A DNA stretch of 64,000 bases from positions 253,190-317,189 of the forward strand of contig JACPGV010000002.1 in assembly GCA_016182385.1 (NCBI GenBank). Direction: 5' to 3'. Below the pieces are notes generated by a model. That model had not been told where the DNA came from. It worked only from the letters and a program-made list of their open reading frames with translations, and did not search any database. This DNA comes from Candidatus Moraniibacteriota bacterium. Lineage in GTDB: Bacteria > Patescibacteriota > Minisyncoccia > Moranbacterales > UBA1568. How positions within the stretch are numbered: position 1 is the first letter of the stretch; every line of letters starts with the position of its first letter. Positions 3,237-64,000 of this stretch are shown piece after piece. Made by a program: the position numbers and the translations under genes.

Positions 3237-3498
3237 ACGTTTTTGCGAATTAGGTGTTGGTTCTTTATAAAATCAGTTTTTATTTTTTTGACTTTGTAGT
3301 ACGTAGAAATGGTTTATGATTTTTACGAAACCATGACTAATCACAAAGGTGACTGGCCATGTCTTGAATCACCCTCTAGCCCGGCAAGCCGGTCACCCCA
3401 GACGGGTAAACAGATGTTTTCCCGACATTTTTCCCTTCAATCCCGTCCATCATGGTATAACTAAAAAAGCCCCTGAAGGGACCTTTCGTTTGTATATG

Positions 3499-3570
3499 CT
3501 GGGGAGGAAGGGATCGAACCTTCGTATGGAGGCTTCAAAGGCCCCTGCCTTACCGCTTGGCTACTCCCCA
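3499..3570 (-). tRNA. tRNA-Gln (anticodon UUG)
   Basis: The reverse complement is UGGGGAGUAGCCAAGCGGUAAGGCAGGGGCCUUUGAAGCCUCCAUACGAAGGUUCGAUCCCUUCCUCCCCAG. It has a cloverleaf with a 7-bp acceptor stem, the anticodon loop CUUUGAA and the T-loop UUCGAUC. The U1-A72 pair and GCCAAGCGGUAAGGC D-arm are typical of bacterial tRNA-Gln. CCA is not encoded. Confidence 0.9.
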
Positions 3571-52313: not shown

Positions 52314-53993
52314 ATGAAACAGCATATCAAAATTCGTTGGCATTTTGCCCTAGTTCTTTTGTTGGGACTTGTTTCTGGATTGATCGCTTATCCGCAGGTG
52401 GTATCGTTCTTTCCTTCTTTTTATGACGCGCTCAATGTTTTTCAGGTGCACAAAGGGCTTGATTTACAAGGCGGTATTCATCTTGAGTATAAGGCGGATA
52501 CATCGAATATTGCTGATGAAAAAGTTGAAGACGCTCTTTCCGCGGCGGAAGCGGTTATTGAACGACGCGTGAACGCGTTCGGTGTTGGTGAACCGCTCGT
52601 GCAGTTATCACGTTCCGGGTCAGAGCGACGAATCATTGTTGAATTGCCGGGAATAAAAGATATTGAACAGGCGAAAAAAATGATTAAAGAGACTCCTTTT
52701 TTAGATTTTCGCGAATCGGGCAACGAAGAACAGGGGCAGCAGTTTGATGATCTTAACAAGCAAACCAAAGAAAACGCTGAAAAAATATTGCTCGCGGCGC
52801 AATTGGCGGGAAGTGATTTTTCTGCGCTTGCTAAGGAACAAAGTCAGGATCCCGGATCAAAGGAAAATGGCGGTGATCTCGGTTTTGCCAAAAGGGGAGC
52901 ATACGTTCAGGCCTTTGACGATGTTGTTTTTGGTGATGCTTTGAAGGTTGGTGAAGTGTCTCCCAATCTTGTGGAAAGTCAGTTTGGCTGGCATATCATC
53001 AAGAAACTTGAAGAGCGGGGCGAGGGTGATGATCGAGAAGTGCGGGCGGCGCATATTCTCTTTGCCAAATATTCTTTGGATCAGTTTCCGGAATTGAAAT
53101 TTTCCCCGACGGGATTATCGGGCAAACATTTGAAAGACGCCTATGTCGACTATCAAAGTCAGGGTATTGGCTCTCCGCAGATCGCTCTCCGTTTTGATGA
53201 TGAAGGAACAAGACTGTTCGCTGAAATTACCAAGCGGAATATTGGCAAACCGGTAGCTATTTTTTTGGATAAGGAAATTATCAGTCAGCCGACGGTACAA
53301 AATGAAATTGTTGCCGGTCAAGCAGTGATTACCGGGAATTTTACGATGGCGGAAGCGAATGATCTTGTGAAGCGTCTTAATGAGGGCGCGCTTCCTGTGC
53401 CGATCACACTCGTCGGTCAACAATCGGTTGATGCGTCACTTGGTGAAGTCGCGTTACAAAAAAGTCTTCTGGCCGGTCTGGTCGGACTTGGGGCGGTGGC
53501 GGTTTTTATGATGCTCTACTATCGTTTACTAGGTATCGTAGCGGTGTTTGCCCTTCTTTTGTATACGGCGATGCTTCTTGCTTTGTTCAAACTTTCCATT
53601 TTTACGCCGTTTGCTATCACCGTAACACTCTCTGGTATAGCCGGATTCATTCTTTCTATTGGTATTGCGGTAGATGCCAACGTACTTATTTTTGAGCGTA
53701 CGCGTGAAGAGCTTTCTTATGGCAAAGGGGTGATCAAATCTATTCGCGAAGGCTTTCGTCGCGCGTGGCCGAGTATTCGTGATGGACACGTCTCGACACT
53801 TATCACGACGGTTATTCTTATGGGATTTGGCACCGGCTTTGTGAAAGGTTTTGCTGTCATTCTTTCGCTTGGTGTGTTGTTGTCGCTTTTTACAGCTGTT
53901 GTTCTTGTGCGTATCACGACCACGTTTCTCGCAGGAGAGTGGATGGAACGTCACGCCGCCTTGCTTGTTTCTCCTAAAAAACCCCTTGAATAA
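52314..53993 (+). CDS. secD: protein translocase subunit SecD, with inserted parvulin-type PPIase-like segment in the periplasmic domain
   Basis: N-terminal …VHKGLDLQGGIHLEYKAD…IERRVNAFGVGEPLVQLSRSGSERRIIVELPG and the C-terminal 6-TM SecD region (…FILSIGIAVDANVLIFERTREEL…). The internal segment …SDFSALAKEQSQDPGSKENGGDLGFAKRGAYVQAFDDVVFGDALKVGEVSPNLVESQFGWHIIKKL…VRAAHILF matches the PpiC rotamase consensus. Confidence 0.85.
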   Translation: MKQHIKIRWHFALVLLLGLVSGLIAYPQVVSFFPSFYDALNVFQVHKGLDLQGGIHLEYKADTSNIADEKVEDALSAAEAVIERRVNAFGVGEPLVQLSRSGSERRIIVELPGIKDIEQAKKMIKETPFLDFRESGNEEQGQQFDDLNKQTKENAEKILLAAQLAGSDFSALAKEQSQDPGSKENGGDLGFAKRGAYVQAFDDVVFGDALKVGEVSPNLVESQFGWHIIKKLEERGEGDDREVRAAHILFAKYSLDQFPELKFSPTGLSGKHLKDAYVDYQSQGIGSPQIALRFDDEGTRLFAEITKRNIGKPVAIFLDKEIISQPTVQNEIVAGQAVITGNFTMAEANDLVKRLNEGALPVPITLVGQQSVDASLGEVALQKSLLAGLVGLGAVAVFMMLYYRLLGIVAVFALLLYTAMLLALFKLSIFTPFAITVTLSGIAGFILSIGIAVDANVLIFERTREELSYGKGVIKSIREGFRRAWPSIRDGHVSTLITTVILMGFGTGFVKGFAVILSLGVLLSLFTAVVLVRITTTFLAGEWMERHAALLVSPKKPLE

Positions 53994-59940: not shown

Positions 59941-59969
59941 TTGTCAAAAACGTATTTTTGTGCTATAAT
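59941..59969 (+). promoter_or_regulatory. consensus-like sigma70 promoter TTGTCA-17-TATAAT driving rnpB
   Basis: TTGTCA at 59941-46 and TATAAT at 59964-69, with an exact 17-bp spacer. The predicted TSS is about 59976, just 5' of the P1 stem. Confidence 0.6.
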
Positions 59970-59983
59970 AGAAAGGTTTCTTG

Positions 59984-60487
59984 TTTTTTTCCAAAACAGA
60001 TCGGATCATTACGCGACCGAGCACTTCATTTGCGTATGCGTTTGTGACGCAGAAGACAAGTGTTTTATTGAGACAAGGCTTTAAAATAACTTGTTGCGAA
60101 ACGGCCACAAGCCTGTTGTGGCACAAATGAAGTGCTGGGAGTGAGGAAAGTCCGGACACTCGCCGATTTTGTCTGCTGAGAATGGAAATATTCTTTTTTG
60201 AGCAGACAAAATTGGCAGCAAGTAGCGGGTAATTCCCGCACGCCGCGAGGCGCGAGGTGCGAACAGAGATGCCATGTGACGAAAGAAACATGGGCGCTTC
60301 TGAGAAATTGGAAGCGTAGTCCAGCAGACGCTGGGGTGAAACAGCCAAATCCTTACTTGAGTGCAAGATCGTGCTCCGCGAGGAGAGAATCGCCAGGATC
60401 TTTGCGGTAACGCAAGGGCAAGAGAAATGATGATCATTTGCCGCAAGGTAAATACAGAATCCGGCTTACAGATCTGTTTTGGAAAAA
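59984..60487 (+). ncRNA. rnpB: RNase P RNA, bacterial type A
   Basis: The P4 halves are GAGGAAAGUCCGGAC (about 60144) and ACAGAAUCCGGCUUA (about 60454). A 17-bp P1 pairs UUUUUCCAAAACAGAUC at 59986-60002 with GAUCUGUUUUGGAAAAA at 60471-60487. An additional helix pairs GAGCACUUCAUUUG with CAAAUGAAGUGCU near the 5' end. Confidence 0.85.
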
Positions 60488-61964: not shown

Positions 61965-62042
61965 TTGACAAGAAGGGAGTTGCATCCCTTTTTGTTTTTG
62001 TTACACTGAAAACAAGATTAACAAAAGTTCGGTATGTCACTC

Positions 62043-64000
62043 CGCAAGGATATTTTTCGAGTAGTTTTCTTCTCATGTTTTTTGTTTTTTGCTTGTTTTG
62101 ATCACGCGTTGGCCGATACGGAGATTTCCCACGTGACTCTCTATGAAGATACGACGTGGACACCCGCAGGCAATCCTTACATCGTGAATAATGTCACGAT
62201 TCCCGCTGGTATCACTCTCACCCTTACTCCAGGTGTCATCGTCAAAGTACCACAATACGGCGCCCCTCTCATTGTTTCCGGAGGGACGCTTTTTTTGAAT
62301 GGGACAGAGGAGAATCCGGTCGTTATCACTTCCATCCATGATGATATTGGTGGTGATACGAATGGGAGTCCGATGCTTCCCAATACAGGCAACTGGTGTG
62401 CCATAGAAGCGCAAGGTGGTACGGTGACCATGACGAATACCAAGATTCGCTATGGCGGTTGTGACGCCGAACGAGGCATGCTCTACAATATCGGCGCCAC
62501 GCTTTCCCTCTCTTCATCAGAAATCTCGTATGCTCGCTCCGGCGTCGTTCTCAAAGGAGGGGAGAGTGAAATCACGGAAAGTTCTTTTCATCACCACGCT
62601 TCTCATGGTATCTACAAAAAACAAGGAGGGACGCTTCGTTTCGGTCACAATACCTTTTCCGATAATGCTTCGGCTGTTACCCTCTCCGACAACGCCTTCC
62701 AAAACGATGGCGGCAATACCGGAGAGAGGGAACGGATCAGCATAAGTAGTTTCTCGGTAAGTGGGGAAATGACGCTTTCTAAAGATGGCCTTCCCTATGT
62801 GTTGTTTGCTCTCACTCTTCCAAGCGGTGCGACTCTTCGCGTACTTCCCGGTGTCGTTGTCAAAACAAACTATCATACGTTTCCTCTTGTTTCTTCCGGT
62901 AGGGTCATTTTGGGTGGACAGAGTAATGAACCGGTCATTTTTACTTCTCTCCGAGACGATTCGATACTGGGTGATACCAATCGGGATGGGAATGCGACCA
63001 TTCCCCAAAAAGGCGACTGGATAGGACTGAGTTTTTCTCAAGGGACCGTTACTATTGCCAACACCGAAATTCGCTATGGTGGGTACAATAACAACGCTCA
63101 GATAGGGAATCATGGCGCTACGATCACCGCAAACAATCTTCTTTTGAAAGAAAGTTCGTGGCAACACCTCTTTCAAGACAGTGGCTCCTTCATTGCTACA
63201 GAGAGCGACTTTTCTCTCGCTTATGATGGTCTGGTTGTTCAGGGTGGCATGGCAGAAGTGCATCAGAGTCGTTTCTCCGATATCAGTCGTTTTGGCATTC
63301 TCAATTTGGCAAACGGGCTCACTCTTGATGCCACGAACAATTGGTGGGGTGATATGTCCGGTCCGAAACATCCCATCAACAATCCAAACGGTCTTGGTGT
63401 GCTTGTTTCCGATCATGTTCTCTTTGATCCGTGGAGCACCTGCTATGGCGACACCTGTCATTCAAGCGTGCTTTTTTTGCCGGGACTTGAAGCGAGTCGG
63501 TTGTATGAAGGTAATGAAGAGCGATGGGAACCATATGGAAATGCTGATGTGGAGAGATTACATCTGAATGAAGACGGCGAGAGTGAACACAATATCCGTG
63601 TCGGAGACGTCATCGACAATGCCTACATTCCGATCAAGGGGAATATATATGAGTCCTTTCTTGAGGATATGGACGAGATGAAGACAGAGCGTCTTATCAA
63701 GGATTTCAAGACGGTTCCGTATGATTGGCGCCTCTCATTTGATATGCTCTTGGTTGATGGTTCGATAGAGGACACGCTCAAATCTTTGGCAGGAAATTCG
63801 AATACCGGAAAAGTGACCATCATCGCCCATTCGAACGGTGGATTACTAGCCAAGGCCCTCATAAAGAAACTCGGTGACAGCGAAGCATCGAGACTCATCG
63901 ATAATCTCGTCTTAGTCGCGGCACCGCAGGTGGGGACACCCCAGGCGATCGGTGCGCTTCTCCACGGATATGATCAGGGATTGCCGGTGAACTGGATGCC
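62043..64000 (+). CDS. large secreted protein: signal peptide + parallel beta-helix repeats + C-terminal LCAT-like alpha/beta-hydrolase domain; 3'-truncated by window
   Basis: The frame was checked codon by codon and is open from the ATG at 62043 to the window end; a stop lies in the same frame at 62028. The signal peptide is MSLRKDIFRVVFFSCFLFFACFDHALA|DT. Repeats of type …GGTVTMTNTKIRYGG… and …QGTVTIANTEIRYGG… are present. The C-terminus reads …VLFLPGLEASRLY…VPYDWRLSF…GKVTIIAHSNGGLLAKAL…. The YDWR and GxSxG motifs are as in LCAT/PGAP1-like lipases. The long antisense ORF at 62517..63461 is rejected. Confidence 0.6.

Follow-up and report, generated by a model that had tools for sequence, protein, structure and literature searches.

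What does a secreted lipase-like protein do in a bacterium that makes no lipids of its own, and is the gene for it intact? The question is raised by a gene at the end of a 64,000-nucleotide stretch of DNA (hereafter the window) from Candidatus Moraniibacteriota bacterium (assembly GCA_016182385.1, contig JACPGV010000002.1, positions 253,190 to 317,189). Bacteria of the candidate phyla radiation (CPR), or Patescibacteria, are without fatty-acid and phospholipid synthesis. Lipidomics has found CPR bacteria enriched in lysolipids, pointing to uptake from neighbouring bacteria (PMC7242380), and it has been proposed that these organisms, lacking lipid synthesis, have membranes rich in lysolipids and attack their hosts with secreted phospholipases (PMC11665869, PMC7242380, PMC8080830). 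A first-pass annotation, made from the letters of the window alone, had read the gene as a secreted beta-helix protein fused to an LCAT-like lipase or acyltransferase domain, and had proposed it as a factor for acquiring host lipids or attacking host membranes. That interpretation is partly supported, because the domains and the family are right and the reading as an active enzyme is refuted for this copy, which has lost the segment with the catalytic Asp and is out of frame at the catalytic His.

An exported beta-helix protein with an LCAT-like hydrolase domain

The frame is open on the + strand from an ATG at 62034 to the end of the window at 64000, 655 codons without a stop, and is preceded by a stop at about 62019-62021, which leaves that ATG as the first start codon. 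The open reading frame (ORF) is real, runs off the window and had been left out of the ORF listing for want of a stop, all as the first-pass annotation had it; the start that it gave, 62043, is in frame but lies 9 nt downstream of the first ATG. The 655-aa translation is identical (100% identity over 100% length) to residues 1-655 of GenBank MBI2439302.1 (HYV45_01720, 873 aa), which comes from a 318-kb contig of a Candidatus Moranbacteria bacterium metagenome-assembled genome (MAG). The full product is known from this deposited protein, and the window covers the 5' three-quarters of it (655/873 codons). We call the full product P0001, and its paralogue in the same MAG, MBI2438989.1, P0002.

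The N-terminus consists of a charged stretch (MSLRKDIFR), a hydrophobic stretch with a 13-residue core (VVFFSCFLFFACF; 12-residue Kyte-Doolittle maximum 2.68) and then DHALA, after which cleavage ahead of a D is predicted. The signal peptide was called from inspection and hydropathy, without a dedicated predictor; in the AlphaFold2 (AF2) model this region is a helix (residues 4-21) of low predicted local distance difference test score (pLDDT), and relatives of the lipase-like protein have equivalent N-termini. With its n, h and c regions and an AxA cleavage site, the protein is predicted to be exported by the Sec pathway.

The mature N-terminal half, aa about 28-470, is a right-handed beta-helix region made of two tandem modules (34% identity, E=1e-28), the second of which is closed by a conserved NNWWGD..SGP motif. 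Pfam Beta_helix (PF13229, cut-off 25.9 bits) is borderline here, at 26.0 bits for the part in the window and 25.3 bits for the complete product, and clear in relatives (42-46 bits), where NosD is matched as well. The AF2 model of the region is all-beta with pLDDT >90, and its Foldseek matches (PL6 lyase, AlgE4, P22 tailspike) are weak, with E about 1e-2. The N-terminal module (TTWT..PY..G.TLTI.PG..VKF...FTS..DD..GGDTN...NNWWG) is not confined to CPR and is found also in Chloroflexus, Bacteroidetes, Latescibacteria and other groups. The non-LCAT proteins that share it carry precomputed Pfam matches to PF01551, PF00082, PF00413 and PF18962, the first three of which we take to be M23, S8 and M10 peptidases and the last a type IX secretion system sorting domain. 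The beta-helix region looks like a portable targeting module for secreted enzymes, and its modules probably serve surface or glycan binding.

The N-terminal part of an alpha/beta-hydrolase domain follows from aa 474. The window ORF reaches 243 bits with the family's hydrolase hidden Markov model (HMM), and Pfam LCAT (PF02450, cut-off 21) scores 39.8 bits against the part in the window and 49.0 bits against the full protein. At the start of the domain lies a conserved family motif, LFLPGLEASRLY, which presumably resembles the 'VPG.LGNQLEA' segment near the oxyanion hole of LCAT and LPLA2. Further on come VPYDWRLSF, with the PYDWR hallmark, and the nucleophile elbow IIAHSNGG, both exactly as the first-pass annotation had read them and both invariant in the family; the elbow holds the putative catalytic Ser600. 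Structure models agree with the profile matches. The AF2 model of MBI2439302.1 has a pLDDT of 87.9 and finds LPLA2 (4x92, E=2e-7) in the PDB by Foldseek, and that of an intact relative, P0003 (pLDDT 90.5), has LPLA2 4x90/4x92 at the top (E=8e-11, target TM-score 0.67). For both models LPLA2 and LCAT are the best fold matches, followed by Tle4, PlaB and family I lipases. Sequence searches of the PDB with P0003 or a first alignment profile gave nothing significant, and a second family profile gave marginal matches only, to Tle4 (E 0.0019) and LPLA2 (E 0.003). NCBIfam has no family for the lipase-like protein, and PADLOC has none for the enzyme. As far as sequence and model can tell, the reading of the gene as a Sec signal, a beta-helix and an LCAT-like alpha/beta hydrolase with its Ser in AHSNGG is correct.

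As assembled, the frame breaks between the catalytic Ser and the catalytic Asp

In intact family members the Ser (AHSNGG), an Asp (GDGTVV.PSA) and a His (KHADILE) are conserved. A motif search found neither the Asp nor the His motif in P0001 or P0002. The family homology of MBI2439302.1 ends at ...KLEYT, aa 812, a few residues ahead of the Asp motif, and its PF02450 match spans only profile positions 56-233 of 392, as against 56-389 of 392 (E=1.4e-17) in the intact relative P0013. On a 421-position hydrolase HMM, P0001 ends at position 355 and P0002 at 351. In a family scan that took one genome per species, with at least 497 loci found and 80 species-representative loci kept, every match extends at least to position 383, and 78/80 extend at least to 415. 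P0305 (1338 aa), the intact relative that is closest, has the two-module architecture as well and 51% identity; it is colinear with P0001 over aa 7-812 of the latter, and the alignment stops exactly at KLEYT. AF2 folds MBI2439302.1 confidently to about aa 816. The 61-aa tail after aa 812 contains none of the residues D, E, G, W, Y and C and is predicted to be disordered (pLDDT <50 over residues 830-873).

What the tail could encode in other frames was computed by a codon-degenerate dynamic programme and compared with shuffles. In frame 0 the tail reads YTQISSKSTLF..., and its +2 frame can encode HADILEVDSLRDFIKD...LHSPLALS, or in a fuller reading HADILEVDSLRDFIKDAVILG.STVYSDYISDSEPDLGSE.RLRY.LHSPLALSIKDA.GH, identical to residues 870-931 of P0305 at 58/62 positions. 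The whole-tail score in this frame is 288, against 121.7 +/- 6.8 for shuffles (z=24.6). With five further relatives the best +2-frame position falls again on the His motif (HADILEV..., z=11-17), and the +1 frame gives z<=2.7. The tail is thus the His-motif region read in the wrong frame, which means that about 45 codons, including the Asp motif ((V/I)DGDGTVV), are missing and that the remainder is out of frame. Relative to P0305 the gap comprises about 139 nt (46 codons + 1 nt) just after ...VPKLEYT; this length is 3n+1 and hence shifts the frame. In window numbering the lesion would fall at about 64464-64469, roughly 466 nt after the last letter of the window. A different origin of the tail, as the N-terminus of the downstream membrane partner joined on by a deletion, was tried and rejected (2.0 bits as compared with up to 9 for shuffles; +1 and +2 frames z<=0.5).

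Judged from the deposited 873-aa product, the catalytic Asp expected after the seventh core strand is absent, and the catalytic His (KHADILE) is absent in frame and recoverable only from the +2 frame of the tail. This copy, as assembled, is defective and cannot form a Ser-Asp-His triad. The first-pass annotation had named two grounds beforehand for giving up its reading, a Ser-Asp-His triad left incomplete downstream and an interrupted frame, and the deposited protein shows both after aa 812.

A second copy with the same end, and the origin of the lesion

The same MAG holds a second copy, P0002 (HYV45_00055, 833 aa), which is 76% identical to P0001 and is not flagged as partial. It terminates directly after KLE, the point at which P0001 loses homology, and this end fits the same lesion together with a TAY-to-stop change. 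The identity between the two is a mosaic: 72-92% over residues 1-450 of P0001, 50-60% over residues 500-600 and 96% over residues 600-812. From the sequences compared, such a pattern suggests that the 3' parts underwent gene conversion recently, and the lesion could have passed from one copy to the other in that event. We consider it probable that the window gene is a real, recently inactivated pseudogene.

Several points weigh against this reading. The lesion was deduced from the deposited protein instead of being seen in the DNA; in a MAG such as this one, two copies with 96% identity over aa 600-812 can mislead an assembler; and the 812 codons before the lesion have no other defect. The flawless 812 codons fit a very recent lesion, but they fit equally an artefact or a retained truncated protein.

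An artefact would mean that the real genome has an undamaged gene, whose product of about 1300 aa is an active enzyme, and that the gap and frameshift are an error of assembly or consensus, or a minority allele, at a place where near-identical paralogues or strains meet. The break does lie at the end of the near-identical block of the mosaic, and 80/80 relatives are intact. However, two separately assembled contigs lose the family sequence at the same codon, and a de Bruijn skip of 139 nt needs a repeat of k-mer length at both ends, for which the junction would offer only about 10 nt of dual homology. In addition, a search with 507 aa of P0003 found no separately annotated C-terminal fragment with the HYV45 tag of this MAG, and the C-terminal-only matches to that query begin at scattered positions, indicating no common split site. 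We regard an artefact as unlikely.

Alternatively, the cell may have kept the truncated product for a use that needs no catalysis, as a beta-helix protein that is secreted or sits on the surface and serves, for example, as an adhesin or binds lipids or glycans. Both copies keep frames of >810 codons and signal peptides despite a difference of about 10-28% in their N-terminal parts, the same module fronts unrelated secreted enzymes (those with PF01551, PF00082 or PF00413), and the confident AF2 fold extends to about aa 816. Yet open frames need not mean selection where recent gene conversion, which the mosaic pattern fits, has spread a lesion; moreover, the hydrolase core would be without its last strands and helices, and the truncated form is unseen in any other member among the 80 loci. 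Retention of this kind seems to us very unlikely, and a recently inactivated pseudogene remains our reading of the window gene.

A family that appears restricted to CPR

Named family members have labels that are of CPR type or uninformative, and so have 79 of the 80 loci; some record titles are dubious. With a limit of E<=1e-30, an exhaustive HMMER search with the window's 182-aa hydrolase segment returned 756 clusters (50% identity), and a limit of E<=1e-3 raised the number to 2537. The family of Sec-exported LCAT-like proteins appears to be CPR-restricted. The region N-terminal to the Ser is variable, 137-894 aa, with right-handed beta-helix modules in many members, and intact members continue for 207-467 aa after the His, where the P0003 model has beta-sandwich domains. 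A conservative motif search detected the Asp motif (GDGTVV-type) in 37/55 family proteins with an AHSxGG elbow, and both the Asp and the His motif in 32/55. The first-pass annotation had suggested a check for a C-terminal cell-wall anchor, and no canonical one emerged: MBI2439302.1 has no C-terminal LPxTG, LPxT[GASN] occurs in the last 60 residues of 2/80 family proteins, and a C-terminal transmembrane (TM)-like segment occurs in 3/80. Our literature searches found no paper describing an LCAT-like family in CPR, or the small gene with which it is paired.

A conserved four-transmembrane partner gene

That small gene encodes an approximately 135-aa membrane protein with four predicted TM or hydrophobic segments (hereafter the 4-TM partner) and lies co-directionally, directly downstream of the LCAT-like gene, in 56/70 loci that have room for it. 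The gap between the two is -33 to +48 nt in most loci, often with an ATGA overlap; a few have gaps that reach about 220 nt. In Moranbacteria GCA_001784965.1, independent gene calls give a 1107-aa PF02450 gene, an 18-nt spacer and a 138-aa gene. Apart from this partner there is no conserved neighbour among the 80 loci, and the other neighbour clusters, those of glycan genes included, are each found in at most 10/80.

The partner is 130-150 aa long and its loops are short; the first contains a pair of Cys residues and the second is rich in Gly, and the protein also has the motif FSLITYKMREEVF.AWWRFARW. By the positive-inside rule its N- and C-termini would be inside and the Cys loop outside. Neither Pfam nor PADLOC has a family for it. 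Its 166 database relatives include none with a Pfam annotation, and the few named ones are CPR proteins called 'hypothetical' or 'uncharacterized'. Among 120 listed of the 166 there is no HYV45-tagged partner; for the window gene the position of a partner falls outside the window. Several loci (L014, L016, L019 and L023, the last with L023:9457-15088) have 2-4 partner copies around or after the lipase-like gene. Such multiple copies resemble arrays of immunity genes. The partner may act in immunity, in anchoring, or as an acceptor of acyl groups or lysolipids.

A further gene was seen in GCA_001784965.1: 1.4 kb upstream of the LCAT-like gene, at L081/L082:901-1269, there is a bAvd-like / 23S_rRNA_IVP four-helix-bundle gene (PF22296, PF05635), and no reverse transcriptase was seen near it in the 12 kb shown.

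Comparison with known lipases and their partners

The family is most like the LCAT/LPLA2 (PLA2G15) group, PF02450. It scores above the Pfam cut-off, its top PDB folds are 4x90/4x92, 5bv7 and 5txf, it shares PYDWR and the nucleophile elbow, and its intact members have the Asp (GDGTV, against GDDTV in LCAT) and the His in the same order. It differs in being bacterial, not eukaryotic, with only about 15% sequence identity (the PDB sequence searches are marginal, E about 3e-3); in having AHSNG instead of GHSLG at the elbow; and in being fused to an N-terminal beta-helix and a C-terminal beta-sandwich and paired with the 4-TM gene. The window copy differs additionally in having no Asp and no His.

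Tle4, an effector of the type VI secretion system (T6SS) with its cognate Tli4 (4r1d), follows LPLA2 and LCAT in the structural comparison and comes first among the sequence-profile matches in the PDB. Its gene organization is also similar, with a lipase gene followed by a small cognate gene, and some CPR loci have tandem extra copies. Unlike Tle4, however, the CPR proteins would be exported by a Sec signal peptide, and no T6SS genes were seen beside the loci examined. The CPR partner is an integral 4-TM protein, whereas Tli proteins are soluble or lipoprotein periplasmic binders. Family I lipases with a downstream foldase (LipA/Lif; 2es4, 9g8u) likewise combine a secreted alpha/beta-hydrolase with a membrane-associated helper encoded directly downstream, and their fold matches are weak. 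Lif foldases, of about 340 aa, are anchored by a single TM segment and embrace the lipase with a large helical domain, while the CPR partner has 130-150 aa, four TM segments and short loops, and is unlikely to be a foldase. Within CPR, Vamp_34_196 of Vampirococcus is a secreted phospholipase proposed to degrade the host membrane and supply lipids to the CPR cell (PMC8080830; reviewed in PMC11665869). The role proposed for it is the same as that proposed here for the LCAT-like family; it is a different protein, likened by role alone.

Genomic context of the window gene

The features of the gene and its surroundings are collected in Table 1. The terminator-like hairpin ahead of the gene suggests that the lipase-like gene is its own transcription unit; neither a sigma-70-like promoter nor an obvious Shine-Dalgarno sequence was found ahead of the ATG at 62034. 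The genes upstream are housekeeping genes, namely those for an ABC-F ATPase, an amino-acid kinase, SecD, SecF, TyrRS, PheS, PheT and a WbaP-type sugar transferase.

Table 1 Coordinates of features, in window numbering unless a family locus is named
Feature	Position	Strand	Basis or remark
Terminator-like hairpin, 12-pair stem then T-run TTTGTT	61967..61996	+	after WbaP-type sugar-transferase gene (Pfam Bac_transf)
Lipase-like ORF, first 655 of 873 codons	62034..64000	+	translation, MBI2439302.1 identity
Sec-type signal peptide, aa 1-27, predicted cleavage between ALA and D	62034..62114	+	inspection, hydropathy, AF2, relatives
Right-handed beta-helix module 1, aa about 28-250	62115..62783	+	Pfam, self-comparison, AF2, Foldseek
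Right-handed beta-helix module 2, aa about 251-470	62784..63443	+	tandem duplicate of module 1
NNWWGD..SGP motif closing module 2	63336-63353	+	
LCAT/LPLA2-like alpha/beta-hydrolase domain, N-terminal part, from aa 474	63453..64000	+	family HMM, Pfam LCAT, Foldseek
LFLPGLEASRLY, conserved motif at domain start	63471..63506	+	P483, G484, S488, R489, L490, Y491 invariant in alignment
VPYDWRLSF, PYDWR hallmark	63714..63740	+	Y563, D564, W565, R566 invariant in alignment
IIAHSNGG nucleophile elbow	63819..63842	+	invariant in family
Putative catalytic-Ser codon, Ser600, TCG	63831-63833	+	within IIAHSNGG
4-TM partner gene, example loci	L002:13368-13784; L017:12481-12891; L081/L082:6001-6417		

Elsewhere in the window (1-64000, GC 43%) there is a single tRNA gene, tRNA-Gln at 3498-3570 on the minus strand, and Rfam at the gathering threshold found no other family over the 64 kb. 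In the SecD homologue (52314-53993, +), aa 148-234 form a peptidyl-prolyl isomerase domain of the PpiC type (Rotamase). Lying between the subdomains SecD_1st and P1-head, it has the look of an unusual insertion. A 140-aa ORF on the minus strand (59944-60366), flanked by pheT and the sugar-transferase gene, has no match in Pfam and may not be a gene.

Possible function of the intact family

The question of substrate is independent of whether the window copy is intact. Intact members, once exported by Sec, would dock on a cell surface through their beta-helix and beta-sandwich modules and would there deacylate or transacylate membrane phospholipids by Ser-Asp-His catalysis, and the products would be lysolipids and fatty acids for an organism unable to make its own. 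It is plausible that the intact family is a candidate for harvesting host lipids, or for attack on the host. A bolder proposal is that the intact family and its 4-TM partner together are the lipid-harvesting machinery of Patescibacteria: a phospholipase A or acyltransferase, secreted by Sec and docked on the surface, would convert host phospholipids to the lysolipids and fatty acids of which CPR membranes are built, with the partner conferring self-immunity or accepting the acyl group or lysolipid. We hold this proposal, taken as a whole, to be unlikely.

The hydrolase might instead act on something other than membrane lipids, such as polyesters or the ester groups of capsular or cell-wall polysaccharides, with the glycan-binding part supplied by the beta-helix. 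Right-handed beta-helix modules are typical of glycan-binding or glycan-processing proteins, and the N-terminal Pfam matches are to families of this fold (PF13229 Beta_helix, and NosD in relatives). Envelope-glycan genes are often among the neighbours, with the WbaP-type transferase here and glycosyltransferases and a UDP-glucose dehydrogenase in L081, and the AHSxG elbow is also like that of small bacterial lipases and esterases. However, the best whole-domain structural matches, over roughly 470 columns, are LPLA2 and LCAT and then the phospholipases Tle4 and PlaB, the PF02450 match of P0013 extends over nearly the whole profile, and the association with glycan genes is weak. A non-lipid substrate is, in our estimate, improbable.

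If the lipid-harvesting proposal is true, the two truncated copies of this MAG would be recent casualties or retained non-catalytic adhesins. The appropriate annotation of the window gene is a pseudogene with a frameshift and an internal deletion, not an active lipase, and domain matches near the edge of a contig or window are not evidence of an intact enzyme. The window gene is a defective member of the LCAT-like kind, and the family with its partner is an interesting lead: widespread, exported, LPLA2/LCAT-like and accompanied by a conserved membrane protein, it offers a concrete and testable candidate for lipid acquisition in CPR bacteria.

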